Assembly: GCA_965243515.1 (NCBI GenBank)
Contig: OZ251572.1
Span: 1,047,239-1,111,238 of the forward strand
Direction of reading: 5' to 3'
Source: Phototrophicaceae bacterium
Lineage (GTDB): Bacteria; Chloroflexota; Anaerolineae; Aggregatilineales; Phototrophicaceae
DNA: 64,000 bases
Made by a program: the position numbers and the translations under genes. Below are positions 20,401-58,429 of the stretch, piece after piece (position 1 is the first letter of the stretch; every line of letters starts with the position of its first letter). The notes under the pieces are model-generated. The model had not been told where the DNA came from. It saw nothing but the letters and a program-made list of their open reading frames with translations, and ran no database searches.

Positions 20401-21059
20401 CAGAACCCACGACCGGGCTGTTCATCCAGGATCAGTTCCCGCCCGGCCCGGAGCAGGGCTTTATTCAGACCGCCGCCGTTGACAGCTGGACCGGCCTGCT
20501 GGCGAATGACTTTTGCGATGACCATGTTATCGACCGCGCTTTCGTCGCCACGGACGATCTTTCGGCGGTTGACTGGCTGAATACGACTGCGGAAGGGCGG
20601 GAGTATGCCGAATGGCTCGGTCTGTCGCTGCCGGCGTCGGCGCCGCCGACGGGCTCCTGCGCCCAGGGGCAAGGGCTGCCGGCGGTTCATATAAGCTCGC
20701 CGAATGAAGGCGCGGTGATCCGCGGCGCGGTCGAGATCCGCGGCCAGGTTCAAGCGCCGGACTTTTCTCATTATGAATTGCTGTATGCCCGCGCCGGGGA
20801 GGACGAATCGTTTATCCCGATTAGCTCGGCGCTGGTTCAAGTCCCGCAGCATGGCGGCTTTCTGGGGACTTGGGATACTCTGGCGGCTCAAATCCCGACC
20901 GGCAATTACATCCTGCGTTTGCTGGCGACGTCCTTGACTGGCGGCTCCATTCAGCGCGACCTGAATATCCTGGTCGATAATCCGATGCCGACGGCAACGC
21001 CGGGCGCAGTCATCACACCGGTTTTTGCGCCGACAGTCGTCTCCGTTCCTTCCGGCTGA
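17487..21059 (+). CDS. Class A penicillin-binding protein (PBP1A-type transglycosylase/transpeptidase) with a ~280-aa cytoplasmic N-terminal extension
   Basis: GT51 motifs (AIISQENERYF, GASTITQQIARN, RKVSEILVALEIA), transpeptidase SAIKP, and a single TM at ~aa 283-310. Confidence 0.95.
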   Translation: MSGDQSKKHLPGNEPERKDDSPPLTPEEMLQSILKPKPAAASSETLAPPEDSPALSSQPPNPDLARPEDLQFARRSDAESEADAPLAAEKESKRAAAAKSDEADTLVEPLPAAVAEEAERFIAMRDQAAAWTDRLNNQEITFDEYQRRLYDAMVQDEAGIWWMIDAENEQWYRHNPDSNQWEEDEPAALRELERYHRAAAGDARAGAPIVDARGVKIGAMPPTADEHYTFPSTAALSDELPDQKATVKSSSDGGGMSDYELEAPPVVQEVLDARRGAARRRLVSAAAVVLILVLTALIAAAVGIMAWYGDAVRPFQEDIAGLASYSPEFQTARILDANGALIAALNSQQTGARTTVPLDDMSPYIIHAIISQENERYFADPGFDPIAIARAFIQNISGGGIESGASTITQQIARNLVLRDAEVSIERKVSEILVALEIANQYDKNFILELYLNEVFFANQNYGVEAASQFYFGHGADELNFAEAALLASIVPSPSQNDPVVNRPTAIQGMRATMHKMLDIGCLQFQHGDWPSRGPFCIQAGQEVMNDGVPQVLVRTNSAGEIAGGLAIVQIAEMETTEFEPLDVRLRYPHFVNYVQARVEAEFGANALFQRGFQIYTTLNPSAQAAAQAALSSQVSQLVSAGVNTGAVMVTDPNSGAIRAMVGSHDFDDDLAGQVNNALTFQQPGSAIKPIVYAAAVGGHQGNYLTPASILWDVPVTYDLGAGQTYSPVNFDRRFHGPVSVRAALQNSYNVAAVKAYLFSGSERFVETARTFGLQFPDGTLPTIASALGANEVRLFDMMQAYGVFASGGRRAPLYAIERITETIDGEEAEVAWEGAAAEQAISPALAYLMQNILSDDQARRPTYPPGSSLTLENIGIPTQNFAAAKTGTSNDSRDLWTMGFTRNAVVGVWLGTYNNSPTFGTTGYNSAAPVWNAVMEAALAGQAPPQFENPGGVVVREICRTTGTLNYPDCPEPTTGLFIQDQFPPGPEQGFIQTAAVDSWTGLLANDFCDDHVIDRAFVATDDLSAVDWLNTTAEGREYAEWLGLSLPASAPPTGSCAQGQGLPAVHISSPNEGAVIRGAVEIRGQVQAPDFSHYELLYARAGEDESFIPISSALVQVPQHGGFLGTWDTLAAQIPTGNYILRLLATSLTGGSIQRDLNILVDNPMPTATPGAVITPVFAPTVVSVPSG

Positions 21060-25949: not shown

Positions 25950-27209
25950 TCAGGCAGTCGGCTGCCGCCACCACCAGCCAGCCTTTCGGCGTTCGCCATA
26001 TTTGAGTTTTTTGTCCAGCCACAAAGCCAGCCGCCGCCAGCGATTGCCCAGCATCCAGCGCAGAATGCGGTTATGGAATTTTGAAAAATCTTTGTTGTAT
26101 GGGCAAACGCGAATGCAAATCGAGCAGTCCGTTCCTTGGTTGACCCAAAACTTGAAGCATTTTTTGGCGTCAATCGTCCACTTTTTGACGCCCTTGAGAT
26201 GTGACAGGCCATCATAAGTCTCATAGCTGGGCGCGTCGGCCGGGATAGCTTTAATCGGACAGCCATCGCTGCATCGGCGGCAAACATTGCAGGTTTCGGT
26301 GACGCCAAAGTCGATGGGTTCATCGGCGACCAGCGGCAAATCAGTAAATATCTTGGCGATCCGCACCCTGGGCCCATATTCCGGCGTAATCAGCAGACCG
26401 TGCCGGCCGTACTGCCCCAGGCCGGCCTGAATCGCCAGCGGGATTGATAAAGCGGTGTCATTGAGGCTGGCGACGGCGCGGTAGCCCAGGTTGCGAATGT
26501 ACTGCGTTATCGACAGGACAGCGATGATGTCTTTGCTGTAGCCTTGCCCGGTGGCGGCGCCGCTCAAGGCCGATGGCACGGTTTGGATGGTTTGGTGGTG
26601 CATTTCGTTGGCGATCACGACTACGCTGGTGAAGTCATCGGGCAGGTCCATTACCTTGTCGGTCAGTTTTTGGCGGCTGTAGCGGTGCGTATAAACCCAG
26701 CGCTCGTCATATTCGCAGATGCCAATCGTATCGGCGCCGAGGAACTTGCCGGCGCGTTTGAGGTCAGCCGTGTTTTCGGCCGCCGCGCCTTTGATTTTGC
26801 GCGCCGCGCCTTCGCGAAACATGGTATAGCTGTCCAAAAAGCCCTCTTTGCGGTCTGCTGACATCTCCAGCAAATCGGCGGTGAAATCGGCAATGTACCA
26901 GGCGGCGTTTCGCAGGGCATAATCTCGATGCTGGAAGCCCTCGACCTTGCGGAACTGCGCCAAATCGGTAAAGTAGGATTCATAGAACCGGCGGGCGCGG
27001 TCAGAGCGAACCTCATCGTCCCAGATGGAGCGGTTGAACATGTCGTGCTTTTGATTGAAACGCTCAAAGTCGCTCGAAACCTCGAAGCCGGTTTTGGCAT
27101 CGACGGGCTTTGAGCAGACGCAGCTTTCGCACTGGCAGCGCGCTTGTTTGGTTTTGGCGGAACTTATCATGCTAATAATCCTGGACAGGGATTTGCCATC
27201 CCCTTTCAT
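25950..27209 (-). CDS. Reductive-dehalogenase-family (RdhA-like) iron-sulfur protein, no TAT leader
   Basis: GLGQYGRHGLLITPEYGPRVRIAKIFTDLPL, then CNVCRRCSDGCP, a ~40-aa insert with KKWTIDAKKCFKFW, then CSICIRVCPYNK. This is the RdhA arrangement of two 4Fe-4S motifs. There is no RRxFLK motif, and the start ATG overlaps the stop of the upstream gene (ATGA). Confidence 0.65.
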   Translation of the reverse strand: MKGDGKSLSRIISMISSAKTKQARCQCESCVCSKPVDAKTGFEVSSDFERFNQKHDMFNRSIWDDEVRSDRARRFYESYFTDLAQFRKVEGFQHRDYALRNAAWYIADFTADLLEMSADRKEGFLDSYTMFREGAARKIKGAAAENTADLKRAGKFLGADTIGICEYDERWVYTHRYSRQKLTDKVMDLPDDFTSVVVIANEMHHQTIQTVPSALSGAATGQGYSKDIIAVLSITQYIRNLGYRAVASLNDTALSIPLAIQAGLGQYGRHGLLITPEYGPRVRIAKIFTDLPLVADEPIDFGVTETCNVCRRCSDGCPIKAIPADAPSYETYDGLSHLKGVKKWTIDAKKCFKFWVNQGTDCSICIRVCPYNKDFSKFHNRILRWMLGNRWRRLALWLDKKLKYGERRKAGWWWRQPTA

Positions 27210-29410
27210 TTATATTGCAGTTGAATAAATTCTTTAATTCGGTCTGTGTGTTCAGCCAATCTTTGCTCCAGCGTCTTCAGCTTTATCCATGTTTCTTCAA
27301 ACGGCTCAAACAAAGAAATTTGCTCCTCAATAGGCAGGATAGGTATCGGAAAATCTTTGATATGGCTTATGTAGATATGCGGCTGGCCGGTGCCTTGCTG
27401 GCGGCTGTAAATTTCCTGCTGTTTAAGTTTCATGCACATAAAAAGGTATCTGTTCAGGAATTTTGATTCATCTTTACTTTTGATCACGATTGAATCGGAT
27501 GCCCATATTGGGCTGTCATGCCACCATACATAACCGGCGTACGCGCCGGATTTGCTTATCGTGAATACACCTCCTAAGTAATTATATTCGCCATGTGTAT
27601 AAGGAACAGTGCCGCGCCCACCAGCAATGACCGGGATATTGCCGGGAGTTGTATCGGCTTTGGTAATGGATTTGCCATTTTGCAGCACAGCCGCTTCTTC
27701 AAGGCTAATATAATCTTTGTCGTTTGCGACCTTCCATTTTTCGTATAAATGAAAGGATTGTCGACTTTCCAGATTTTTAACTGAAATTACGCTAATATCA
27801 AGATTGATGGGCATATTCTCTTCAGGCTCGTCCGAATCCTGATAAAAGAAGAGCGTTTTATCCAAGTCATTTATGTCATTTACCGGCGTGCGCTTGCTGT
27901 CAAAGCCGTCGTTTCTAATGGCTGCTTGATAGAACCAATCGGTTTGCCGCGCGCCTTTGTCGGTCAAATAAATAATGCCGGTTTTAGCGTCGGTGTAAGG
28001 CGCGAAGCAGCCGCGCGGCAGCCTGGCCAAGAGTCTGACGCGCGAATTCGAGAACAGGAATCTCAACAACTCGGTATGCTTGCGATTGACAAGCAGCCCA
28101 TCCGGCACGACGATTGCCATAGACCCGCCGAGCCTCAAGCTGTTAAAACACTTTATAACGCAGGCTTCATCAGCATCCTTTGGACTGCCCTCGACGAGAT
28201 CTAATATCTCTTGAGACACATTTTGCGAAAATGGGATATTAGAAAGGACGTTGTCGTACTTCCCATCCGTATCTGCCCGCAGGCTGTTCTGCTGTGTTAC
28301 TCCCGAATGGCCATCGCCAAACAAAATCATATTCATTTTGGCGATGCGCGCGGTAGTGGTGATTTCCCCGCCGAAGACGGTTTTATTATGCAATGTGTCA
28401 AACACTTCTTTCGACAATCGGCGCTGCTGGCTGATATGCTTAAATGATTCGGTGAGAAATCCGCCGGTGCCGCAAAATGGATCATAGATGTTTTCGCCAT
28501 ACTTCGGATTAAGCAGCCTAACCATGAACCTTATGATATGGCGGGGCGTGAAATACTCGCCCAGATCGTTTTGAGTGTCGGTGGTCTTCTGAATAAAATG
28601 TTCAAAGGCGACGCCTTTTATGTCTTCGTCAATGCCGGTGAGATGCAAGGGATTGAGTTTGTGAATAATTTTCCTCATGGCGCTGGCGTATTCTGGCTCA
28701 ATAGATGATTTAGTGATGACTTCGCCGCCGTAGACTTCACTAAGCCGATTCATCGCGACTTCATTCAAATAAAGCAAGAGGTCTTTTTCGGGCTGCTGAA
28801 GCAGCTGATGCCAGATTTCACCGTCGCCCTTTTCGCTAAGCAGTTTCAAAAAGAGGATGTTGGCGAATTCGCTGAATCTTTCGATGCCGGCGCGAAGGCC
28901 GGCTGCTCTAAGGTCGTTATTCAGTTCTGAAAACAACTGAATTAACTGTTCCCTGGACTTGATGACTTCTCTGGGAACGGTGAATATCTCGTTTGTCCCT
29001 TCACTCTGAAATCGCTTCAGCAGTTCCAGAGGAAGAAATTCGTTCACTTCGACGCCGTTCAAGTACAAGGGCTTGCCGCTGTCGAGATATTGAGACTTTA
29101 AGGTCGCGCCATTGCAGGCGAAGACTATTTTTACTCCAATTCGGTCGGCATAATTTTTGGCTTGACTAAGCGCATCATTGAGATTCGTCACCGCTGGCTT
29201 CTTGGCCTCAATTACGGCAAGCGGAATGGCACCGTCGAATAAAGTGTAATCGGGTCTTTTGTTTCCTAGATTTTGCGTGCTTTGATGCGACAGCCGGGCT
29301 TTGACTGATTCTTCGAAAAATACATTTCGCCTATGATCTTGAGCGTCGAGAAACCATCCCTTCGCCTCTAAAGCACGGTCTATTTGATATCGAATGTCTG
29401 TCTCAATCAC
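27206..29410 (-). CDS. Single-chain restriction-modification-like protein: PD-(D/E)xK nuclease-like N-domain + gamma-class N6-adenine methyltransferase + one HsdS-type target-recognition domain (type IIG/IIB-like)
   Basis: RPDYTLF...AVIEAKK (HsdR_N-type nuclease motif), motif I IYDPFCGTGGFL, motif IV VLSNIPFS, and a C-terminal TRD ending ..GTGQPHIYISHIKDFPIPILPIEEQ. The gene is AT-rich: a hand count gives 26/60 G+C at 28561-28620. Confidence 0.8.
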   Translation of the reverse strand: MIETDIRYQIDRALEAKGWFLDAQDHRRNVFFEESVKARLSHQSTQNLGNKRPDYTLFDGAIPLAVIEAKKPAVTNLNDALSQAKNYADRIGVKIVFACNGATLKSQYLDSGKPLYLNGVEVNEFLPLELLKRFQSEGTNEIFTVPREVIKSREQLIQLFSELNNDLRAAGLRAGIERFSEFANILFLKLLSEKGDGEIWHQLLQQPEKDLLLYLNEVAMNRLSEVYGGEVITKSSIEPEYASAMRKIIHKLNPLHLTGIDEDIKGVAFEHFIQKTTDTQNDLGEYFTPRHIIRFMVRLLNPKYGENIYDPFCGTGGFLTESFKHISQQRRLSKEVFDTLHNKTVFGGEITTTARIAKMNMILFGDGHSGVTQQNSLRADTDGKYDNVLSNIPFSQNVSQEILDLVEGSPKDADEACVIKCFNSLRLGGSMAIVVPDGLLVNRKHTELLRFLFSNSRVRLLARLPRGCFAPYTDAKTGIIYLTDKGARQTDWFYQAAIRNDGFDSKRTPVNDINDLDKTLFFYQDSDEPEENMPINLDISVISVKNLESRQSFHLYEKWKVANDKDYISLEEAAVLQNGKSITKADTTPGNIPVIAGGRGTVPYTHGEYNYLGGVFTISKSGAYAGYVWWHDSPIWASDSIVIKSKDESKFLNRYLFMCMKLKQQEIYSRQQGTGQPHIYISHIKDFPIPILPIEEQISLFEPFEETWIKLKTLEQRLAEHTDRIKEFIQLQYK

Positions 29411-29572: not shown

Positions 29573-30451
29573 ATGACGCGGATTGAATTTTACATTGTCG
29601 ATGTCTTCACCATCGGGCGCAAATACACCGGCAACCAGCTGGCGGTTTATCTGGGCAACCCGCCGACCGCGCTGATGCAGCAGCTGGCGAAGGAGATCAA
29701 TTTCTCCGAGATCGCCTTTGTAACGTCCAATACGCCTGAAAACGGCGGCTATAATGTGCGGATATTCATGCCCGAAGTCGAAGCGCCTTTCGCCGGGCAT
29801 CCCGTGCTTGGCACAGCTTACGTCATTCGGCGCGAGCTTATCCGCAAGCCAGTCGATGGCCTATTGCTGAACCTGGCGGTCGGACAGATTCCCGTGACCT
29901 TTGGCGAGGATGGCGTGATTTGGATGCGGCAGAATCCACCGACCTTTGGCCGCCGGTTTGAAGCGGCGGAAGTGGCGCCGATACTCAATGTCGACGAGTC
30001 GGATATTGATCGGCGCTATCCGATTCAGGAAGTGTCGACTGGCTTGCCCTTTGTGATTGCGCCGATGGTGTCGCTGGATGCGGTGAAACGGGCGCGGGTC
30101 AATCTTGATCGGCTGCGGGCGATGCTTGGCGCGCATGATGCCATTGGCCCGGCGATATTCTGCCCGCAGACCCTGCATGAGGAAAACGATATTCATGTGC
30201 GGGTTTTGGACGATATTTATGGCGCGCCCGAAGACCCGGCCACCGGCAGCGCCAACGGCTGCATCGCCGGCTACCTTGTCCATTATCGCTGTTTCGGCGG
30301 CGGCATCTCGCTGCGTTCCGAACAGGGCTATCAAATCGGACGGCCTTCGCTGCTGCATCTCCAAGCCCATCGGACAGCCGATGAAATCGTGATTCGGGTT
30401 GGCGGGCAGGTCGAGATGGTGGCGCAGGGACATCTGGCTTCTGATGAATAA
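29573..30451 (+). CDS. PhzF-family isomerase (phenazine biosynthesis-like protein)
   Basis: FYIVDVFT...GNQLAVY...LAKEINFSEIAFV...VRIFMPEVEAPFAGHPVLGTA and a second half with ..EDPATGSANG. Confidence 0.85.
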   Translation: MTRIEFYIVDVFTIGRKYTGNQLAVYLGNPPTALMQQLAKEINFSEIAFVTSNTPENGGYNVRIFMPEVEAPFAGHPVLGTAYVIRRELIRKPVDGLLLNLAVGQIPVTFGEDGVIWMRQNPPTFGRRFEAAEVAPILNVDESDIDRRYPIQEVSTGLPFVIAPMVSLDAVKRARVNLDRLRAMLGAHDAIGPAIFCPQTLHEENDIHVRVLDDIYGAPEDPATGSANGCIAGYLVHYRCFGGGISLRSEQGYQIGRPSLLHLQAHRTADEIVIRVGGQVEMVAQGHLASDE

Positions 30452-30485
30452 CCTGACAGCTTGCAGAAGCAGAGTAAGGGAAGAG

Positions 30486-32123
30486 ATGAACGAGTTGAAT
30501 GTTAGGAACAGGACAATTTTTCATGGGGACAATCTGGAGTTTCTGCGCGGGATAAACAGCGAGACGATACACCTTATCGCGACTGATCCGCCGTTTAAGA
30601 AGGGGCGCGACTTTCACGCGGCGCCGGGGAGTCTAGCGCAAGGCGCGCGCTTCAAGGATCGCTGGTCTTGGGAACAGGACGTACAGGGCGATTGGGTGGA
30701 CAAAATTAAGGACGATTGGCCGGCGGCCTATGCGGTGATTGAAAGCACGCGGTTAAGCTATGGTGAGGATATGAGCGCGTTTTTGTGCTGGCTGGGTGTG
30801 CGGCTCATGGAGATGCGCCGGGCGCTGCGGGCCGATGGCAGTTTGTACCTTCACATCGACCATACGGCGCACGCGTACGTGAAGGCGCTTCTCGACTCCA
30901 TCTTTGGCGCGCGGAACTTCAGGAATGAAATTGTGTGGAGGCGTGTTCGAGGAGCAAAAAACGATGCTCGACAATATGGGCGGTCTTCTGATACCATTCT
31001 TTTTTATACCAAGAGTCAAAAGTGGACTTTTGACCCGCCGCGATTAAAGCAAGTTGATGACAGCTGGTATAAAAAAAGAGATGAAAGGGGTAAATATGTA
31101 TCAAGGCCTCTTCTCGCGTCAGGGGCAACAAAAGGAGACAGCGGGCAAGTTTGGCGCGGCGTCGCCCCCAAAGGCCATTGGATTGTTCCCCGCTTGCTAA
31201 CTGCCAGGTATGAAAAGGAGCAAAACAGAAAATTACAGGGAACAGTGCGCGAACGTCTGGATATATTAGCCGATGCGGGATACATCGACTTTTCACATAA
31301 TGGCAATCCATCATGGAGACGTTATTTATTTGAAGCTAATCCACCCCGTGTAGATAATATATGGGATGATGAAGAGACAAAACTTATGTCTCGAAATTCC
31401 CTAGAGCGTATCGGCTATCCAACGCAGAAGCCTCTCGCGTTATATGAGCGCATCATCAAGGCATCTTCCAACCCCGGCGACTTCGTCCTCGACCCTTTCT
31501 GCGGCTGCGCCACAACCCCCGTCGCCGCCGAGCGCCTCGGCCGCCAATGGATAGGAATGGACATCTGGGACAAAGCGCACGACACCGTCCTCTCCCGCCT
31601 AGAGCGCAACAATCTAGCAGTTCCCACCCGCGAGGAAAAAGAAGACCAGCCCAACCTCTTTACCTTTGGCGATGTAACCTATAGCGCGATTCCGCCGACT
31701 CGGACTGATGACAATGAAATCGCCGCGCCGCGCATCAAGCATAAAATCCCAATTCCAAAAGAGAAATGGGAGATGCTATCGCACAAGCAGATGAAATGGC
31801 ATCTCGCGCAATACCAGCGGCGAGAGGGAAAAGAGGGACTGATTGTATGCGCTGGCTGCGGGCGCGAGTTGGAAGTCGAGTTCATGGAGCTAGATCATAT
31901 CTCGCCCAAGTCAGATGGCGGCGCCAACAGCATCATCAATCGCATCTTAATATGCCGCCCGTGCAATGGCCGAAAGAGCAATGGTCTAACGCTCACCGGT
32001 CTGCATCGCGAAAACAGGCGTGAAAAGTGGATGCAGAGCAAGGAACTCGCCGACTTCGCCAAGCTGCGGCAATCGGAAGCAGTCGACCACGCCAAGCGCG
32101 ATCCCGATAGTATTCAGGTATAA
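30486..32123 (+). CDS. Beta-class (N4/N6, PF01555-like) DNA methyltransferase fused to a C-terminal HNH nuclease domain
   Basis: Motif IV IATDPPF near the N-terminus, YPTQKPLALYERII, and motif I VLDPFCGCATTPVAAERLGRQWIGMDI. The C-terminal HNH reads CAGCGRELEVEFMELDHISPKSDGGANSIINRILICRPCNGRKS. ATG 30486 is preceded by AAGGGAAGAG. Confidence 0.85.
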   Translation: MNELNVRNRTIFHGDNLEFLRGINSETIHLIATDPPFKKGRDFHAAPGSLAQGARFKDRWSWEQDVQGDWVDKIKDDWPAAYAVIESTRLSYGEDMSAFLCWLGVRLMEMRRALRADGSLYLHIDHTAHAYVKALLDSIFGARNFRNEIVWRRVRGAKNDARQYGRSSDTILFYTKSQKWTFDPPRLKQVDDSWYKKRDERGKYVSRPLLASGATKGDSGQVWRGVAPKGHWIVPRLLTARYEKEQNRKLQGTVRERLDILADAGYIDFSHNGNPSWRRYLFEANPPRVDNIWDDEETKLMSRNSLERIGYPTQKPLALYERIIKASSNPGDFVLDPFCGCATTPVAAERLGRQWIGMDIWDKAHDTVLSRLERNNLAVPTREEKEDQPNLFTFGDVTYSAIPPTRTDDNEIAAPRIKHKIPIPKEKWEMLSHKQMKWHLAQYQRREGKEGLIVCAGCGRELEVEFMELDHISPKSDGGANSIINRILICRPCNGRKSNGLTLTGLHRENRREKWMQSKELADFAKLRQSEAVDHAKRDPDSIQV

Positions 32124-41459: not shown

Positions 41460-42572
41460 TCAAATGACAAAATGCTCGTATTCGTTTTCGGCTGGCAGCC
41501 CCCAAACTGACCAGAAATCGCCGGTGCGCGGACACATGATGGCGGCGCCGCAGCTTTCGACGTCCATTGGCGGCTTGGGGCGGGTGCAGATAGCTTCTTC
41601 GTCGCGGGTGAGCGACATCAGGTCGTCAATGGCGACGGCGTCTTTGGCCAGCAGTTCGCGGGCGCGGCGCAGTCGATTCTCTGAACTGTTTTGGGAGTCG
41701 GGCGGCCGTTGGCGGGCCAGCCGCAGGTTCTTCTGGATGAGGCAGTGGTTGGTGTGGACGATGGTCTCGTCGGTGAGTTCGCGGATGTGCATGGATGTGG
41801 ACATGGCTTCAGCTTCATAGCCGCGGCCTTGTCCGTCCATCAGCATATAATTGTGCGCGCCGGCTAGTTTGGCGCCGGTCAGGCAGGCGAGGGCGTCTTC
41901 CAAATTGCCTTGCTGGAGGATTTTCCGCACGACAAAAGGCCAAGTCACGCCGATTTGACCGTCGGTCGACATCAGATTGTTGATGCCAACGGCGATGCCG
42001 GCGCTGTTCATCCCAATCATACCGACGCAGCCAGTGATGGTGAAGGCGAGGAAGGCCGGCGCATTCGGCGGCTGGCCATGGAGCAAAATCACATAGGGCG
42101 TCGCCGAGGCGTGCATGTCCCAAGTTTGGCCGAAGAAGCCTTGTCCAGTGACACTGCGGCGGTTGGGGATCATAAAGGCGGTGCAGTTGTCGGCGGCATA
42201 GGAAGGCGCGGCGGCTGGCTGGACGGCGCTGCCCAAGTTATAGACGACATCGATAAAATCGGTAAAGCCGTTGTTGATGACCAGTTCGGCCAGACTTAGG
42301 CCAGTCGCGTCGGCCATGCCCTGCAATTCGTCCATCAAATCGGGAGCATAGCGCTGATGCTCGGTGACGCAGGCTTCGGCCAGGCTGATGACGGCTTGGC
42401 GCGGCAGACTATGCCCAGTCCAGCGTTTGTCCTGGCAAAGCGCCACGCGGTCTTTGGTGAACAGGTGGATTTCATCGTGAAAAAGCTGCCCGTGCGCCCA
42501 TCCCATCTCATAAGGCGAACCCGACAATTTGACAACCCGCATCTTTTTCATGGCCGTCCTCCTTGTCTGCAT
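41460..42572 (-). CDS. C45-family peptidase / acyl-CoA:6-aminopenicillanic-acid acyltransferase-like Ntn hydrolase
   Basis: LSGSPYEMGWAHG near the N-terminus and the putative nucleophile context AADNCTAFMI. Confidence 0.7.
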   Translation of the reverse strand: MQTRRTAMKKMRVVKLSGSPYEMGWAHGQLFHDEIHLFTKDRVALCQDKRWTGHSLPRQAVISLAEACVTEHQRYAPDLMDELQGMADATGLSLAELVINNGFTDFIDVVYNLGSAVQPAAAPSYAADNCTAFMIPNRRSVTGQGFFGQTWDMHASATPYVILLHGQPPNAPAFLAFTITGCVGMIGMNSAGIAVGINNLMSTDGQIGVTWPFVVRKILQQGNLEDALACLTGAKLAGAHNYMLMDGQGRGYEAEAMSTSMHIRELTDETIVHTNHCLIQKNLRLARQRPPDSQNSSENRLRRARELLAKDAVAIDDLMSLTRDEEAICTRPKPPMDVESCGAAIMCPRTGDFWSVWGLPAENEYEHFVI

Positions 42573-42620
42573 TATATTCGATTATCATAAAGATGACAAG
42601 CAAGCGGGAGGAAGCTGCTG

Positions 42621-42889: not shown

Positions 42890-43687
42890 CTACATCTTAT
42901 CCATTTCGGCGCGGACGGTATCAAGCAGATTTTCGGCGCGGATTTGCGCCAATGTATAGCAAGGCCCGCCCAAATGGTCGGCCAAACGCTGCGCCAGGCC
43001 TTGGTCAAAGGCGACATGCTCCATATTGATGGTCACGGTGCGGATGTCAGCCTCATGGATTTTGCGGGCAATCGAATGCGCCTCTTCCTGCGGCGAAATG
43101 GATTCGCTGATGGAGACATTGCCAGCGCCGTCGGTCAGCAGAATCATCATCGGCATCACATCAGGATTGAGGTTCTTTTCGCGCATGACAGCCTCATAGG
43201 TCATCAGCAGCCCGGCCGACAGCGGCGTTTTGCCGCCGACTGGAATATCGGCCATGGCCTCCTTGGCCAGCACAACTGAATTGGTGGGCGGCAGCACCAG
43301 CGAGGCGCGGTCCTTTTGGAAGACGACCAGGCCGACGCGGTCGCGGCGCTGATAAGCATCGGTCAGCAGGGACATGATGGCGCCTTTGGTGGCCTGCATC
43401 CGCTCGGAAACGGCCATGCTCCACGAAGCGTCGACGGTGAACATGATCAGGTTGGCGGCCTTGCGAACGCGGACTTTCTCCTGCAAGTCGGTTTTTCGCA
43501 GGGCGTAGGCCATGCCGGTTTCCTGCTTTTGGGCATCGCGCTGCTTCTGAAAGGGAGCGGCGGCGCGCAGCGTGGCGTCAAAGGCGATGTCGCGCGGCTT
43601 GTCGCCGGCCTGCTTGGCGCGGACGTAGCGGCCTCGCTTGCGGTCGGTGCGCGTAGTCGAGCGGCGGCCCGACTGACGGCGAGTCAT
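42890..43687 (-). CDS. vWA/MIDAS-domain protein homologous to the C-terminal half of Mg-/Co-chelatase subunit D (BchD/ChlD/CobT-like)
   Basis: DATLRAAAPFQ...IMFTVDASWSM (MIDAS DxSxS)...VGLVVF...GGKTPLSAGL...ILLTDGAGN. The reading frame is open a further 57 codons upstream of the ATG. Confidence 0.85.
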   Translation of the reverse strand: MTRRQSGRRSTTRTDRKRGRYVRAKQAGDKPRDIAFDATLRAAAPFQKQRDAQKQETGMAYALRKTDLQEKVRVRKAANLIMFTVDASWSMAVSERMQATKGAIMSLLTDAYQRRDRVGLVVFQKDRASLVLPPTNSVVLAKEAMADIPVGGKTPLSAGLLMTYEAVMREKNLNPDVMPMMILLTDGAGNVSISESISPQEEAHSIARKIHEADIRTVTINMEHVAFDQGLAQRLADHLGGPCYTLAQIRAENLLDTVRAEMDKM

Positions 43688-43845
43688 CTTGTCAAGCTGC
43701 GTGTTCAGCTTGCGGGCTTCAAATTCGGCCCTCGATTCGATTTGCTGGCCGCCTTCCCACCAGCGGGCATCCGAACTGGGGAAGACATCCTGCGGGGCGG
43801 CTTCGGTCTGGCCAAGCTGCTCTTCCTGCGGCTCGCCCTGGCCGT

Positions 43846-44967
43846 CTAGCGTCTCACTTTTTTTTTAGACTGCGCGGCCTGCTCGTCGCTGTTTTCGGTG
43901 AATTCGCCGGCCTCTTCGCCTTCGCCTATTTCCTGCCGTTTGTCTTCGACGGCCGATTCGACTGCGTTGAGATCAGCTTGGGCGTCAGTAAAGGGCCCGC
44001 GCTTGAGACGGTGCGGAATGGTCAGGCGGATCGCCAGGGTAATGTCGCGGTCATTGATGGCCACGCGCCCTTCATAAGCGGCATGGGCCCGCGCGGCTTT
44101 CAGCACCACCAAATCGGCGCGGTGACCGTCGATATGCAGATCGCTGATGATGCTGGCGATGACGCGCAGGTCGCTGCTGGTATGCGAAACCTGGTCGATA
44201 ATCTGGCGGGCGGCGGCGATGCGCTGTGACAATTCATCATCAACTGGCTCCCATTCGGCCTTGAAGTCCAGCGGACTGTTTTCATAGGCGATATGCCGTT
44301 CCAAAATCTCAATTCGTTCGCCGGCGGCCTTGATGCCAGTGACATCGACCGAAAGCGCAAAGCGGTCAAGCAGCTGCGGACGGAGGTCGCCTTCTTCGGG
44401 GTTCATCGTGCCGACCAGGATAAAACGCGCCGGATGGCTGAAGCTGATGCCCTCGCGCTCGACGATGTTGATGCCCATGGCGGCGCTGTCCAGCAAAAGA
44501 TCAACAATATGATCGTCAAGCAGGTTGATCTCGTCGACGTACAAAATGCCGCGGTTGGCGTTGGCCAGCACGCCGGTATCGAAATGACGTTCGCCGAATT
44601 GAATCGCCTTTTCGATGTCGAGCGTGCCGACCACGCGGTCCTCGGTCGCGCTGACTGGCAGATCGACAAAACTGATGCGGCGGCTGGCGATTGGCATATC
44701 GGCGGCGTCGCTGTACTTTTGGCGGGCAAAATCCGACCACGATTCGGGGCGATAGGGATCGTCGTTGAAGGGCGAATCGGCGATGACCTGTATCTCTGGC
44801 AGCAGGGCGGCCAAGGCGCGGGCGGCCGTCGACTTGCCGGTGCCGCGTTCGCCGCGGATCAGCACGCCGCCGATCCTCATGTCAATCGCGTTAAGGATCA
44901 GCGCCAGCTTCATCAAATCCTGCCCGACAATGGCGGTGAAGGGATAGACAGGCGGTCGTTTGCTCAT
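43846..44967 (-). CDS. AAA+ ATPase of the Mg-chelatase subunit I family (BchI/ChlI-like)
   Basis: YPFTAIVGQDLMKLALILNAID..IGGVLIRGERGTGKST (Walker A), ILYVDEINLLDDHIVD (Walker B), VGTMNPEEGDLRPQLLDRF and an acidic C-terminal tail. Confidence 0.9.
   Translation of the reverse strand: MSKRPPVYPFTAIVGQDLMKLALILNAIDMRIGGVLIRGERGTGKSTAARALAALLPEIQVIADSPFNDDPYRPESWSDFARQKYSDAADMPIASRRISFVDLPVSATEDRVVGTLDIEKAIQFGERHFDTGVLANANRGILYVDEINLLDDHIVDLLLDSAAMGINIVEREGISFSHPARFILVGTMNPEEGDLRPQLLDRFALSVDVTGIKAAGERIEILERHIAYENSPLDFKAEWEPVDDELSQRIAAARQIIDQVSHTSSDLRVIASIISDLHIDGHRADLVVLKAARAHAAYEGRVAINDRDITLAIRLTIPHRLKRGPFTDAQADLNAVESAVEDKRQEIGEGEEAGEFTENSDEQAAQSKKKVRR
43858..43866 (-). repeat. A9 homopolymer (T9 on the + strand) 10 nt before the stop of the BchI-like gene; candidate slippery site
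   Basis: The minus strand reads CAG TCT AAA AAA AAA GTG AGA CGC TAG. Confidence 0.95.
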
Positions 44968-45105
44968 GGGTTTCGATTGTCCCTCATCATAACGAATTTC
45001 ACTGAATGGCTGATTATAGGATAGAGTAGCGGCTGTGACAATATGGATTTTCGACGGTGGCTGGTATAAACTTGTCCTCTTATTGATTTTGGAGGGAGCA
45101 AGACC

Positions 45106-51494: not shown

Positions 51495-51638
51495 GCTGGC
51501 CGTTTCAATCTTTTGCTATGAGGCCTGCCCGACGGCGGCCTCATCAGCGTTCACTGCAACACAGCCCTCGTTATTTGGATGTTCCGCGTTTATCATGGGG
51601 CGCGTTATTCATCGCCGCGTCAGTCATCGGGGAGAGTT

Positions 51639-54638
51639 ATGCCGCCAGCTTTGAATTTTCAGCAGGTCATCTTGAAACTGCATGCGTTTTGGGCATCGCA
51701 TCACTGCGTGATTGGCGAGCCGTACAATGTTCAGGTGGGCGCGGGGACGGGCAATCCAGCGACGCTGCTCAAGGTTTTGGGGCCGGAGCCGTGGCGCGTG
51801 GCTTATGTGGAGCCGAGCGTTCGGCCTGATGATGGGCGCTTTGGTCAAAATCCCAATCGGATGCAGAAATACTATCAATATCAAGTCATTCTGAAGCCTG
51901 ACCCTGGCAATCCGCAGGAGCTTTATCTGGCGTCGCTGGAGGCGCTTGGCATCAGTCGGCGCGAACATGACATTCGCTTTGTTGAGGATAACTGGGAATC
52001 GCCGGCTTTGGGGGCGTGGGGGCTGGGCTGGGAAGTATGGCTTGATGGTCAGGAAATTACGCAGTTCACCTATTTTCAGCAGGCTGGCGGCCTGCAGCTT
52101 GAGCCGGTCAGCGTTGAGATCACTTATGGGATTGAGCGGATTGCGCTGGCTTTGCAGGGGCGCGAATCGGCTTGGGCGATGGACTGGATGGATGGGCTTA
52201 GCTATGCCGATGTGATGTTTAATGAGGAGCTTGAGCATTGCCGTTATTATTTTGACACGGCGGATGTTGGGGCGCTGCGGCAGGTGTATGACATTTATGA
52301 GCGCGAATATGCGCGGGCGCTGGAGGGGGATGCGCTGATTGCGGCTTATGATTATGTGCTGAAGTGCAGTCATTTGTTTAATGTGCTGGATACGCGCGGC
52401 GCAGTTGGCGTGACGGAACGCGCCAATTATTTTCGGCGCATGCGCGAGATGACCCGCGGCATCGCCAAGGCATACGTCGCCAAGCGCGAGCAGCTGGGCT
52501 ATCCGCTGATGAAAATGGCGGAAAAATGGCGCGGCTTTCAGGTTCAATGCGCGGCGGATTTGCCGCCGGGGCCGACGGCGGCGGCGGATGTCTTGATTGA
52601 GATTGGGGTAGAGGAACTGCCGGCGGCGGATGCGGCGGCGGCGCTACGGCAGGCGCGGCAGAGCGCGCCGACGTTGTTTGATGAATTGCGGCTGGATCAC
52701 AAGGGAGTCGAAGTTTATGCCACGCCGCGCCGAATTGTCGTTATTGGCCGTCAGGTGGCGCCGCGTCAAACTGATGAGGTGTTTATCGCCAAGGGCCCGC
52801 CGGCTGACCGCGCCTTTGATGCGGATGGCCAGCCAACGCGGGCGGCGCGGGGTTTCGCCAAGAGCAAAGGGCTTGATGTGGCTGATCTGGAAGTGCGCGA
52901 GATGGATGGCGGGCGGTATGTTACGGCGCGGGTGCGTCATGTCGGGCGGCCGACGACCGAGGCGCTGGCGGAAAGGCTGCCGCCGTTCATCGCTGGGCTG
53001 AAGTTTGGCAAGACGATGCGCTGGAATGAGACCGGGGCGGTTTTTTCGCGGCCGGTGCGCTGGCTGGCGGCGCTGTTTGGCGATGTCGTGATTCCATTTG
53101 AATTCGCCGGCCTCGCCAGCGGCAATGTCACCCGCGGCCTGCGGCCTTATGGTTCGCCGCAGACGACGCTCAATGGCCTGGAAAGTTATCTGGCGGCTGG
53201 CCGGGAACAGGGAATAATCCTGGATGATGAGCAGCGGCGGGCGGTGATTGAAGCGCAGGCGCAAACGCTGGCGGCGGAAGTCGGCGGGCGGGTGGCGGCT
53301 GACCGGGAACTGCTGGCGGAAGTGGCGAACTTGGTCGAGGCGCCGAGGGCCTTCCGCGGCGGCTTTGATGTGAAATATCTTGAATTGCCGCGCGATGTTT
53401 TGGTGACAGTTATGCGGAAGCATCAGCGTTATTTCGCGGTCGAGGATGCTGATGGTCGCTTGATGAACTATTTTATTGGCGTCCGCAACGGCGACGGCGA
53501 ATATCTTGACAAGGTTGTTCGGGGCAATGAGCATGTTATTGGCGCGCGATTTTCGGATGCGGTTTTCTTTTATCAGGCGGATATGCAGAGGTCGCTGGAA
53601 GATTGTCTGCCGCGGCTTGACACGCTGACGTTTCAGGCTGATTTGGGATCGATGCTGGCGAAAAGCCGCCGCGTCGGCGGGACGATTGCGGGGTTGGGCG
53701 AACTGCTGGGGATGGATGCGGCCGATATTGCGACGGCGGAGCAGGCGGCGCCGATTGCCAAAGCGGACTTGGCGACGAACATGGTAGTCGAGATGACTTC
53801 GCTGCAAGGGATTATGGGGCGCGAATATGCGCTGAAAGCGGGGCGGCCGGCGGCGGTCGCTGATGCTATTTTTGAGCATTGGCTGCCGCGCGGCGCCGAT
53901 GATATTTTGCCGACCAGCGATGCTGGCCGTCTGCTGGCGGTGGCGGACAAGCTGGATAGCCTGCTGGGGCTGTTTGCGGTGGGGCTGGCGCCGAAATCAA
54001 CGTCCGATCCTTATGGGCTGCGCCGAATGGCCGTGGGCATCGTGCAAATTCTGGTGGACGGGGACATTGAAGTCGATTTGCGCCAAGCGATTGAACGCGT
54101 GGCGCCGAGCCAGCCAGTGGAAGTCGGGGCGGGCGTCAAGCGGCAGGTTCTTGATTTTGCGCGGGCGCGCTTGGCGGCGTGGCTGGGCGATGAGCAGGGC
54201 CGGCGGCCGGATGTCATCCGGGCGGTTCTGAAGGCGCAGGCGCATAATCCAGCCGGCGCGGCGCGGGGCGTGGATGAGCTAAGCGAATGGGTCATGCGCG
54301 ATGATTGGGAGTCTATTTTGGACAGCTTTGCCCGCTGCGCGCGGATGACAGCTAATGAAGCGGCGCAGACCTTGAGGGCGGAACTGCTGGCTGAACCGCA
54401 GGAGAAGCGGCTTTACGCCGCTGTTCAGGCGGCGGCGGACGGGCTGGCGCGGTCGGATAATGCGGGCAATTTTCTGCGGGCTTTTGCGCCGATGGCGGCG
54501 GCGATTGACGACTTCTTTGATCATGTGCTGGTTCATACTGATGATGCGCGGCTGCGTCAAAATCGGATTGCGCTTTTGCAGATGGTTAGTCGGATGCAGG
54601 ATGGGCGCGCTGATTTGAGCGAGTTGGACAATTTTTAG
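51639..54638 (+). CDS. glyQS: Glycine--tRNA ligase, alpha and beta subunits fused in one polypeptide
   Basis: The GlyQ part has [40 protein letters not shown] and [19 protein letters not shown]. It continues without a stop into the GlyS part ([11 protein letters not shown]...). GGAGAG precedes ATG 51639. Confidence 0.95.
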
Positions 54639-54758
54639 GGGAGGGGATGCGCGCGTAAGAATTTTGTATAAATGTTTTAACGCGCGGCTGTGGCTATGGC
54701 ATAAGCGGCGGCGGCTGTTTATAATTGATTATTGTCAGCAGATGGGAGTATGTTTGCC

Positions 54759-56837
54759 ATGTCAGTGACGGATGAGATTAAGGCGCGCATTGACATTGTG
54801 AATTATATTCAGCGTTCGGTCCCATCGCTGAAGAAGGCTGGGCGTCATTATAAAGCCTGCTGTCCGTTCCACGATGAAAAGACCCCGTCGTTTGTTGTTA
54901 ATCCAGAGAGGCAGACGTGGCGCTGTTTTGGCGCCTGCGCTGAAGGCGGCGATCTGTTCACCTTTGCCCAAAAGCTGCACGGCTGGGATTTCAAGGAGAC
55001 GCTGCGCGAACTGGGGCAGGAAGCCGGGGTGCAAATTCGCCGGCAGACTCCTGAACAAAAGTCCCGCGATGATTATTTGGAACGGCTGCGCGGTCTGCTG
55101 GCGGCGGCGGCTGATTATTATCACCGCCTTTTGTTTGATGCCGAAGGGCATGAGACGCGGCTGTATGCCCGCGACCAGCGCGGCTTGACCGAAGACACCA
55201 TCAAGGCTTTTCAGATTGGGTATGCGCCTAATCGCTGGGACGGTCTGCTGAAAATGCTGGGCGGGCTTGGCTATGGCGAAGCTGAAATGATTGAGGCTGG
55301 TCTGGCGATTCGCAGTGACAAGGGGCGGGTGTATGACCGTTTTCGGCATCGGCTGATGATTCCGATTCGGGATGGGCGCGGGCGCGTGGTCGGTTTTGGC
55401 GGGCGGGCGCTTGATCCACAGGATACGGTCAAATACATCAATTCGCCGCAGACGCCGCTCTTCAATAAGAGTCAGCTTTTGTTCGGGCTGGACAGTGGCA
55501 GGCGCGCTATCCGCGATATGGGAACGGCGGTGATTGTCGAGGGCTATTTGGATGTGATTCAGGCGCATCAAGCTGGGTATCGCAATGTTGCCGCGCAGAT
55601 GGGCACGGCTATGACCGAGGCGCAGGTCAGGCAGGCGGCGCGCTATGCTGACAAAATCGTCATCGCGCTGGATGCTGATGAGGCTGGGCAGCGGGCGGCC
55701 CGCCGCAGTTTGGAAGTTGCGCGTCAAACGCTGGCCGATGACCTTGCTGGTCGGCTGTCGGTGGATGTGCGGGTTCTGCAAATGCCGACTGGCAAGGATC
55801 CTGATGATTTTCTGCGCGAATCGCCGGAGGGCTGGGAGGCCTTGGTGGAGGGAGCGCGGTCGGTGGCTGATTTTGTGATTGATATGGAAACCGCCGGCTT
55901 GTCATCGCAGGCAGGCATGCAGGAGCGTCAGTCGGCCGCCAATCGGATTTTGCCGATCCTGATGGGTTCTGAAAACAATTTGTATCAGCAGGAAAATATA
56001 CAAAAGCTGGCGAGGCGGTTAAGGATAGGCGAGCGCGATTTGCTGGCTTGGGCGCAGGAACAGCTGGCGGCGAATCGAAAGGCGCCGCCGTCCGCGCCTC
56101 CGCCGCCGGATAATGTTCCGCCGGATCTGCCGCCGGAGTATTGGGGCGAAAATGATGATATGCCGCCGGACAGCGCGGGGGAGGCCGAAGGGCGGCCGCG
56201 TTCGGCGGCATCGCAAGCGGCCAGGAAGCAAGAGCGGGCGATTGAATCGCACTGTTTGGGCTTGCTGATGAAGCATCCGAATCTGCTGTATCAGGTGAAT
56301 CGGCGGCTGCGGGAACTGGCGGGCGATGATGAGGGTCTGCTGCGGGGGCCTTTGTGTGATTTGGGGATGGAAGATTTTACGCAGAGTCAGTATCGGGTTT
56401 TGATGGGCCGTTTGCAGGAGTCGATGACGCAGGATGATATGGAGCCGCTGCATTATGTCGGGTCGATGCTTGAGCGGGAACTGCGGGCGGATTTTGAGGC
56501 TTTGCTGATTGAGGCGCCTGAAGTTGTTTCGGCGCGGGTGCGAGGGGGGTTTCAGGTCGATATGCTTGATATTTTCAAAAAGCGGATGGACAAGGGCGGC
56601 CCTAATACGGATGTTCGGCAGGAATTGGTGGGGCGGGCATTGCAGCTGCGGCTGGAGCGGCTGGAGCAGGAACGGGTCGAGATGCAGTATTTGCAAGAGG
56701 AGGCGCAGGCCGGCGATGACGAGGACCAGGCGCATCATCATCGTCTTAATCGGAAGATTATTTTGTCGATCAAGGCGAAGGCGCGGATTGACTGGGCGGT
56801 CAGTCGGGCTGCGGTCGGCGGCGGCGACTGGAATTGA
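54759..56837 (+). CDS. dnaG: DNA primase
   Basis: CHC2 zinc finger [26 protein letters not shown] and TOPRIM ([18 protein letters not shown]). I prefer start ATG 54759, which is 10 nt after GGGAG. Confidence 0.95.
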   Translation: [692 protein letters not shown]

Positions 56838-56866: not shown

Positions 56867-58429
56867 ATGGCGGGCAAAGACAACCGAATTCGCGCATTCA
56901 ATGTTTATGACAGCGGCGAAGATGAGCGTCTGCTGGCGGAGGTTCGGGGCAGCATCAACCGCAATGACCGCGGCGCGGCTTTTGAAGAGGGCGGGCTGGA
57001 TTCTGGCGATGACGGCGCGGATAAAAGGCTGCCGATGACGGATGATCCAGTGCGGATGTATCTGAAGGAAATTGGTCAGGTGCCGCTGCTGGACAGCAAC
57101 CGCGAGATGTGGCTAAGCGCTCAAATTGCCGCCGAGCGGCATTTGGAGGCTTTGCGCGATGAACTGATGAGCCTGGACAATCTTCAGTCTGGCGGGCGGC
57201 TGCCGAATTATCTTGATGTCGAGCGGTATGCCTATAAAAAGCTGGGTCAGAACTGGCGCGAGCTTTTGGAAGCGATTAAGGAATTTGATGTCGCCGCGCC
57301 TGATTTTGACAAGGCGATTGACGAGGCGCAGGGGATTGCGCGGAATTGGGATGTTGAGGGCGATTCGTATATTCGGGGCTGGCTCAATCAGCAGAATTGG
57401 GGGCGCGACGCCCAATGGGCCAAGGTGGCGAAGCTGTTTTTTGAGATTGTTCATGCCATCTGTCTGTTTCCGCTTGAACGGCAGGCGCAGATGCGGCGCT
57501 ATATTCGGCGGCAGAACGAACTGCCGTCCTTTGGGCAGTTTGATGCTTGGATTGAGGACGCGGCTGACCCGATTGAACTGGCGAAGCATCAGCAGGAGCA
57601 GGTTGAGCATCAGGCGGCGCTGGCGGTGGAAGACCTGACGCGGGCGAATCTGCGGCTGGTTGTCAGTGTGGCCAAGCGGTATATGGGGCGCGGCATCAGC
57701 TTTCTTGATCTTATTCAGGAAGGCAATGTGGGTTTGCTGCGGGCGGTCAACAAGTTCGATCATACCAAGGGCTACAAGTTCAGCACGTATGCGACTTGGT
57801 GGATTCGTCAGGCTATCAGCCGGGCGATTGCGGATCAGGCGCGGACGATACGGATTCCAGTTCACATGGTCGAGACGATTAATCGGCTGATGCGGGTTCA
57901 GCGCGAGCTTTTGCAAAAGCTGGGGGCTGAACCCAACGCCGAGCAGATTGCGCTGGAGATGAATTTTCTGACGGATGCGGAGCGCGAGGCGGTCAAGCAG
58001 GGGCGGCGGGAAGATCTGCCGCTGGCGCCGGGCTTGAATCGCAAACTGCGCCGCGCGGTTCAGAAAGTCCGCAAGATCATGCGTATCAGCCAGGAGCCCA
58101 TGAGTCTGGACATGCCGGTTGGGCAGGAAGACAGCAGTTATCTGGGGGATTTTATTCCGGATGAGAATGCGATTGGGCCGGTTGATGCCGCCAGCCGTCA
58201 ACTCCTGAAAGATCAGATTCGCTCGGCGCTGGGGGTATTAAGCGAGCGCGAGCGTCAGGTATTGGAGATGCGCTATGGTCTGGTGGACAGCCATGATTAT
58301 ACGCTGGAGGAGGTCGGGCGTTATTTGGGCGTGACCCGCGAGCGGATTCGCCAGGTTGAGACCAAGGCATTGCGGAAGCTCCGTCATCCGACCCGTTCGC
58401 GTCAGCTGCGCGATTACCTTGAGATGTAG
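56867..58429 (+). CDS. rpoD: Primary RNA polymerase sigma factor (sigma-70/RpoD)
   Basis: Region 1.2 [11 protein letters not shown], region 2 [47 protein letters not shown], and region 4 [19 protein letters not shown]. Confidence 0.97.

Follow-up and report, generated by a model that had tools for sequence, protein, structure and literature searches.

In our reading, two neighbouring minus-strand open reading frames (ORFs) in a 64,000-nucleotide stretch of contig OZ251572.1 from a Phototrophicaceae bacterium (positions 1,047,239 to 1,111,238, hereafter the window) are one gene. The upstream ORF (ORF1) encodes a ChlI-like AAA+ ATPase and the downstream ORF a vWA domain, and ORF1 ends just past a run of nine A residues (A9). 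We put at about 85% the probability that the locus is a single fs-chlD gene of the ChlI/ChlD-CobS/CobT chelatase AAA+/vWA family, decoded in two ways; the frame change, we think, is made mainly by RNA polymerase. Standard decoding would stop three codons past the A9 and yield a 373-amino-acid (aa) ChlI-like small subunit. A programmed -1 change inside the A9, in a fraction of expression, would yield a 692-aa ChlD-like medium subunit carrying the same AAA+ module. As the main route, RNA polymerase would slip on the T9 template and add one A, giving an A10 messenger RNA (mRNA); a -1 slip of the ribosome on A_AAA_AAA may contribute as well. The long product could come from an A10 or A7 mRNA or from the ribosomal slip, and an A8 or A11 mRNA would lead to an immediate end at a TGA. 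The gene belongs to the published 'magnesium chelatase' or fs-chlD type of recoding, for which the phenomenon, its rationale and reporter evidence are already in print. Coordinates of the features are collected in Table 1.

Direct reading of the minus strand gives ...CAG TCT AAA AAA AAA GTG AGA CGC TAG as the end of ORF1. The A9 run, the TAG and the TAA that closes the -1 frame lie where an earlier note on this DNA had placed them, and the heptamer A_AAA_AAA that it had read in the 0 frame is present. Also as described there, 57 sense codons follow in the -1 frame; beginning with the last A of the run, they read SETLDGQGEPQEEQLGQTEAAPQDVFPSSDARWWEGGQQIESRAEFEARKLNTQLDK and lead into ATG 43687 of the vWA ORF. 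The linker encoded in this frame reads SETLDG...AAPQDVFPSSDARWWEGGQ...NTQLDK up to that ATG, and the junction peptide of the -1 product would be ...AAQSKKKSETLDGQGEPQ... The note had put the fused product at 373 + 57 + 265 residues; because the KKK of the run belongs to both products and the longer one lacks the VRR tail, this is corrected to 370 + 57 + 265 = 692 aa.

The linker frame offers no obvious place to start translation. ATG, GTG and TTG are all missing from the 57 linker codons in the -1 frame, and the stop of ORF1 is separated from ATG 43687 by a gap of 158 nucleotides (nt). The lack of a Shine-Dalgarno (SD) sequence before this ATG, remarked on earlier, holds over the 25 nt on its 5' side (CAAGCTGAACACGCAGCTTGACAAG), which contain no GGAGG-like or other SD-like run. 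The A9 is the longest homopolymer of the window, where every other is at most 7 long. Outside the run, lysine is encoded within the gene by AAG 19 times and by AAA 8 times; the figures for every long ORF in the window (AAA 393, AAG 328) were left unused, as spurious overlapping ORFs enter into them.

Domain models assign Mg_chelatase, AAA_5 and AAA_lid_2 to ORF1 and vWA to the downstream ORF. The best NCBIfam model for both ORFs is the same one, TIGR02442 'putative cobaltochelatase', which describes a fused protein over 641 positions. ORF1 covers positions 1-350 of the model, the vWA ORF 405-640, and the linker together with the vWA part 356-640. The conceptual -1 fusion matches positions 1-640 of the 641 in a single stretch at 733.2 bits, which bears out the BchD/ChlD layout that the earlier note had ascribed to the fused product. 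This score falls short of the cut-off curated for TIGR02442, a hypoth_equivalog model (779.45), as do the scores of the fusion against TIGR02031 BchD-ChlD (442 bits, cut-off 499.55) and of ORF1 against TIGR02030 BchI-ChlI (399 bits, cut-off 466.95). Because its scores are under the curated cut-offs, the predicted -1 product is classed here as a close relative of the TIGR02442, BchD/ChlD and BchI/ChlI families, not as a certified member. Members of TIGR02442 are single ORFs, and the -1 product of the window aligns with the model end to end but under the cut-off.

Structures in PDB agree with these assignments. ORF1 matches ChlI 8osf with E = 2e-106, and also ChlI 6l8d and BchI 1g8p; together with the 399 bits from TIGR02030, this supports the BchI/ChlI-like identity proposed earlier for the unshifted product. 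The vWA part is closest to the vWA domain of BchD, 2x31. The three motifs of an AAA+/vWA-MIDAS motor, GERGTGKST, ILYVDE and DASWS, are all found, and the motor residues K45, D145, E146, D513, S515, S517, T581 and D613 are invariant in an alignment of 25 sequences.

The linker between the two halves varies in the way a translated sequence does. Among 12 genes of about 90% identity, the variable columns of the linker at codon positions 1, 2 and 3 of the -1 frame number 21, 7 and 47, out of 57 each. The flanks show the same third-position bias in the same genes, with 82, 42 and 321 variable columns in ORF1 and 45, 13 and 222 in the vWA part. Variation of this kind is a signature of purifying selection, seen in the -1-frame linker as well as in the two halves; the run and the early stops are themselves conserved as nucleotides. 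In the 25-sequence alignment, eight residues encoded on the 5' side of ATG 43687 are invariant across the family (Q393, W403, W404, G406, G407, F416, R419 and D426). Many relatives have Leu or Ile in place of the methionine of that ATG, Met428; the closest ones keep the ATG, and in four shifted genomes the linker has no ATG, GTG or TTG anywhere.

The arrangement was followed through a set of 160 homologous loci (896,622 bases), 80 of them from species-representative genomes and the rest from metagenome contigs. The -1 arrangement occurs in 44 loci besides the window, 25 from GTDB species-representative genomes and 19 from metagenome contigs. All 44 keep the A run and an open -1 frame and conserve the amino-acid sequence of the linker, the outcome that the earlier note's proposal called for. 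Every one of the 45 -1 loci, the window included, has A9 or A10 at the ORF junction (A9 in 38, A10 in 7; 37 and 7 among the other 44), conserved at the level of nucleotides. The 25 species-representative genomes match the window exactly, with A9 in phase 0, the -1 relation and a stop three codons 3' of the run; the 19 metagenome loci comprise 12 with A9 and 7 with A10 in phase 1. The position of the 0-frame stop is identical in 26/26 shifted loci of the genome set, where the codon is TAG, TAA or TGA, and the stop lies at most 4 codons 3' of the run in all 45. Two complete chromosomes, OY760398.1 and OZ244875.1, are among the -1 loci. So are contigs with SPAdes (NODE_) and MEGAHIT (k141_) names, which, going by the names alone, would be short-read assemblies and not prone to homopolymer errors.

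A rough neighbour-joining tree places the 45 -1 genes together in a single clade, whose most distant members are about 64% identical to the window. The subclades have A9 in phase 0, A10 in phase 1, A9 in phase 2 and A9 in phase 1, and the -1 relation is kept in each. The sister groups of the clade are in-frame genes with A9-A11. The clusters at 90% identity that hold the exact 373-aa and 265-aa products have 64 and 77 members; most of those listed show the same split lengths, and the named ones are annotated 'ATP-binding protein'. A scan of a metagenome collection with exact patterns for same-species variants from A7 to A12 gave no match. Two further loci, L016 (run at L016:4097-4105) and L077 (L077:1748-1756), are 'in-frame' by the frames of their high-scoring segment pairs, yet have a 0-frame stop 1-3 codons past the A9, and the tail of L016 reads gtc cct cgg tag, as in the shifted clade. 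Both are probably -1 arranged as well, obscured by partial segment pairs or by more indels.

Continuous homologues of the gene also exist, as the earlier note had considered. Among the 120 best protein homologues of the -1 product, 119 are single proteins of 665-736 aa that align over 97-100% of its length at 58-63% identity; the exception, P0074, comes from the locus L001, treated below. The fused homologues are mostly from metagenome-assembled genomes of Anaerolineae/Chloroflexota. In a MAFFT alignment they have KKK, KKN, KKT or EKK at the position of the window's run, and the acidic linker is otherwise very variable. Many of the in-frame genes also carry a run at this site. Among the 80 species-representative loci there are 26 with A7-A10, 17 of them A9, in three codon phases, and the metagenome set adds 21 with A7-A11; in 38 of these 47 genes the run is at least 9 long. 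Because the run sits in all three codon phases, the conserved object is the run of nucleotides and not a lysine triplet. Over the 896,622 bases of the 160 loci, coding-strand A runs of at least 9 occur 83 times at the linker site, and A/T runs of at least 9 occur once elsewhere on either strand; the run at the linker site is therefore beyond chance. The in-frame relatives would mirror the -1 genes: their default would be the long form, and a slip in either direction would lead to early termination.

Where a separate chlI gene lies 3' of chlD, the A run is missing. Run-less chlD with a separate chlI is the genotype complementary to the genes with a slippery run, and its absence of a run where chlI adjoins fits a role of the run in supplying the small subunit from the same gene. 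Loci of the Dormibacterota type (L062, L069, L071, L075, L080, L081 and several of L137-L161) have a run-less fused chlD followed by a chlI-like gene.

As to which machinery slips, RNA polymerase is favoured because the length of the run, and not its codon phase, is conserved and because no downstream structure is conserved; we rate mainly transcriptional slippage at somewhat better than even. The run is at least 9 long in 45/45 -1 genes, whatever its phase, though the ribosome would need no more than a heptamer. A stop closes the third frame at most 10 codons on in 91% of the 45 shifted loci against 24% of the background, and in the in-frame relatives off-frame termination comes at a median of 5-6 codons against 21-28 in the background, figures for which the background was drawn from the vWA domain, not the acidic linker, and whose percentages overstate independence, the loci being related. 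A stimulatory downstream structure, for which the earlier note had allowed, was not borne out: RNAalifold found 0 conserved pairs across 20 shifted loci, and the 101 nt downstream of the run in the window fold at -33.6 kcal/mol with z = +0.95. A search of 43500-44100 against Rfam at a permissive threshold gave no match, and no SD-like element upstream of the run is conserved across the shifted loci of the genome set.

A purely ribosomal -1 programmed ribosomal frameshift (PRF), in which tRNA-Lys re-pairs in the P and A sites on a faithful A9 mRNA, would give the same two products. The classic shift site A_AAA_AAA is there for it, and the chlD event has been called PRF, with A_AAA_AAR under purifying selection (PMC9227772, PMC5009743). 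The missing structure and upstream SD-like element speak against it, as does a run whose length stays at 9 or above instead of 7 in three phases, and published efficiency grows with run length past the heptamer (PMC3711429). We consider an exclusively ribosomal shift possible and distinctly less probable than one in which RNA polymerase does most of the slipping.

The earlier note had left three ordinary explanations standing, a length error, a recent split and two genes, and the comparison of orthologues contradicts each. The exact ORF1 product lies on a 3.3-Mb contig that is probably a long-read assembly, and L001, a close relative, has A10, so that the A9 might be a homopolymer length error in the assembly and the true gene an A10 gene of plain fused form. 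That the same A9 and -1 relation recur in 37 other loci, among them NODE_ and k141_ contigs and two complete chromosomes, leaves this with next to no probability; a fused gene would have no use for a conserved 0-frame stop three codons past the run, and the L001 gene has two other frameshifts. Hardly any weight attaches either to a recent frameshift that split a fused gene into a pseudogene or left a decaying vWA half. The more distant homologues are indeed fused, but the split is common to a clade extending to about 64% protein identity, variation is biased to third positions in both halves and in the linker, and the Walker A, Walker B and MIDAS residues are all in place. The conserved linker and the age and stability of the split clade exclude both a sequencing error and a recent pseudogene.

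An ordinary operon of a chlI-like gene and a vWA gene initiated at ATG 43687 agrees with the gene callers and with the NCBI annotation, which give two genes ('ATP-binding protein' and a 265-aa ORF), and with the ATG of the closest relatives. It does not explain the coding sequence 5' of that ATG, which holds family-invariant residues in a frame without a start codon, and Leu or Ile codons take the place of the ATG in many shifted relatives. The conserved linker, the variable Met codon, the 158-nt distance and the missing SD sequence exclude an independently initiated vWA gene of the ordinary kind, and we think the operon very improbable. Slightly less improbable, though still unlikely, is phase variation in the DNA itself, where replication slippage between A9 and A10 would toggle the long product in subpopulations. 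Poly-A tracts are slippery for DNA polymerase too (PMC3711429), and both A9 and A10 genotypes occur in the family. However, consensus sequences within the A9 phase-0 clade all show A9, the noisy L001 excepted, and split lengths dominate the 90% clusters among the members listed. The A10 of the -1 clade has another phase and keeps the -1 relation, hence it makes no on/off toggle.

Several points weigh against decoding of the window gene in two ways through slippage by RNA polymerase, the choice of background for the off-frame stops given above among them. L001, from ENA ERZ21830300 (ctg654804l), is syntenic with the window at about 87-91% aa identity, and in its gene (L001:5352-7422) the run is A10 (6484-6493) and the halves join in frame. 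This gene carries two more frameshifts, one near '...GTMNPEEGD' and one near the C-terminus, because of which L001 was set aside as evidence of a fused wild type; the assembly is probably a noisy, long-read-looking one, with a run length that is not trustworthy. Ribosomal frameshifting is the published name of the mechanism, and A_AAA_AAA is present in every phase of the run. No cobN, chlH or B12 genes were found in the 64-kb window. Production of the long form in this organism is a prediction from sequence comparison, and slippage in vivo, its efficiency, the shares of transcription and translation and the assembly of the two products into an I/D-type complex are likewise inferred.

The window gene resembles published fs-chlD genes in most respects. 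It has a ChlI-like upstream ORF, a -1-frame linker and vWA ORF that would complete a ChlD-like protein, a poly-A junction, annotation as two genes, fused homologues and a place in the Chloroflexi. Antonov et al. 2013 described 23 genes with -1 frameshifts in six genera, among them the Chloroflexi genus Herpetosiphon, and noted that such loci are annotated as two adjacent genes of about 1 kb and that fused homologues are known (PMC3711429). 'Magnesium chelatase' cassettes gave reporter frameshifting in E. coli of 63% with A11, 40% with A9 and 10% with A7 (PMC3711429). The review of Atkins et al. 2016 treats fs-chlD, with A_AAA_AAR under purifying selection (PMC5009743). According to Kuznetsov et al. 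2022, fs-chlD gives the small and medium subunits, and Anaerolineaceae carry such genes; some carriers have neither a large subunit nor a B12 or chlorophyll pathway, and the function of their complex is unknown (PMC9227772). The lineage of uncultured Chloroflexota to which the window belongs (with relatives labelled Aggregatilineales, Phototrophicaceae, Anaerolineae) is not named in PMC3711429, PMC9227772 or PMC5009743, as far as these were checked. In the published genes downstream stimulatory RNA structures are usual though not obligatory; none is conserved in the clade, as far as the fold across 20 shifted loci shows. In contrast to the described cobalt-chelatase cases, which are tied to cobN, no cobN is seen in the window. 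Further fs-chlD work, by Antonov in 2020 (MBE), is cited by Kuznetsov et al. 2022.

A mechanistic parallel is dnaX, to which the earlier note had likened the locus as one that makes both partners through a -1 frameshift or slippage at the A9; the comparative tests support that idea. As with tau and gamma, two products of different length, with the ATPase module in common and assembling with each other, would come from a single AAA+ gene, and the slip site is an A run in lysine codons. The A9 equals in length the run of Thermus thermophilus dnaX, where transcriptional slippage occurs (PMC3711429), whereas E. coli dnaX uses -1 PRF at A_AAA_AAG with an SD sequence and a stem-loop as stimulators, which the window gene lacks. 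In dnaX of E. coli and Thermus the long form is the default and the short one arises by the shift; in the window gene this is reversed, although in some dnaX genes with two ORFs the 0 frame gives the short product (PMC3711429). The two protein families have the AAA+ fold in common but are otherwise unrelated. In its subunits the gene resembles BchI/BchD (ChlI/ChlD) and CobS/CobT, which pair a small AAA+ subunit with a medium subunit made of an AAA+ module, an acidic Pro-rich linker and a vWA-MIDAS domain. Those subunits come from separate genes, and in BchI/BchD-type systems the AAA+ module of the D subunit is diverged. Both products of the window gene would instead contain an identical AAA+ module with intact Walker motifs.

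For annotation, the consequence is that this locus and dozens of its relatives are deposited as two genes and should be one recoded gene with two products. The window gene opens no new field; it adds to fs-chlD a deep and well-sampled clade of 45 loci with several run lengths and codon phases. The comparative pattern bears on the choice between transcriptional and ribosomal slippage: run length is conserved whatever the phase, no stimulator is conserved, and early stops close both off-frames. The clade would also be useful for asking what an I/D motor does when no large chelatase subunit is nearby. As a tentative and rather doubtful combination of all these parts, RNA polymerase would slip on an A9/A10 selected for length, the default would have flipped to the small subunit, and the motor would work without CobN or ChlH in a process other than the insertion of metal into tetrapyrroles.

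Table 1. Features of the proposed fs-chlD gene, in window coordinates.
Feature	Position	Strand	Description
ORF1, 0 frame	43846..44967	-	373 aa, 41 kDa; ChlI/BchI-like AAA+ ATPase, 'small subunit'; C-terminus KKKVRR*
Walker A GERGTGKST	44827..44853	-	AAA+ module; invariant in 25-sequence alignment
Walker B ILYVDEIN	44524-44547	-	AAA+ module; invariant in 25-sequence alignment
A9 slippery run	43858-43866	-	T9 on + strand; KKK in 0 frame; holds heptamer A_AAA_AAA; proposed site of -1 frame change
-1-frame stop TAA, 5' side	43865-43867	-	closes -1 frame just before run
Third (+1) frame stop TGA	43854-43856	-	AAG TGA, directly 3' of run; would end products of A8 or A11 mRNA
0-frame stop TAG	43846-43848	-	three codons 3' of A9; sets C-terminus of short product
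57-codon linker, -1 frame	43688..43858	-	SETLDG...AAPQDVF...ARWWEGGQ...LDK; reachable from ORF1 solely via -1 shift
vWA/MIDAS part	42890..43687	-	separate 265-aa ORF for gene finders; C-terminal half of predicted 692-aa (77 kDa) ChlD-like 'medium subunit'
MIDAS DxSxS motif (DASWS)	43418-43432	-	vWA part
Promoter-like site TTGTCA-17-TATAAT	45013..45041	-	consensus scan 11/12; about 45 nt 5' of gene ATG; candidate only

A second promoter-like site with the same hexamers as the candidate in Table 1 (TTGTCA-17-TATAAT, 11/12) lies at 42571-42599 on the minus strand, 5' of the next minus-strand gene, an AAT/C45-peptidase-like ORF at 41460-42572. No chelatase of CobN size is among the 10 largest ORFs of the window, and the window contains no second ChlI-like copy. 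The neighbours of the gene are unrelated and of housekeeping type: a rhodanese-like protein by ORF reading, and PfkB, an ABC transporter, AAT and AlaDH by Pfam in the syntenic L001.

Farther off, a reductive-dehalogenase-family ORF (TIGR02486, 198 bits, above the cut-off), of a B12-dependent class, adjoins a MAD2/HsdM-like DNA methyltransferase, and near it lies a 559-aa adenine-methyltransferase-like ORF whose C-terminus matches the HNH region of IscB/Cas9d models; this group occupies 25953-27209 (-), 27209-28753 (-) and 30444-32120 (+). At 51579-54635 (+) the window encodes a 1019-aa fused alpha-beta glycine--tRNA ligase, which scores 1144 bits with NF011499, just under the cut-off of 1244, and passes the cut-offs of the glyQ and glyS domain models. 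On its 3' side come dnaG (54750-56834) and then rpoD (56867-58426). A penicillin-binding protein of the PBP1A family, 1190 aa long, is encoded at 17487-21056 (+); its glycosyltransferase domain begins at about residue 285, which implies either a long N-terminal extension of unassigned sequence or a start called too early.

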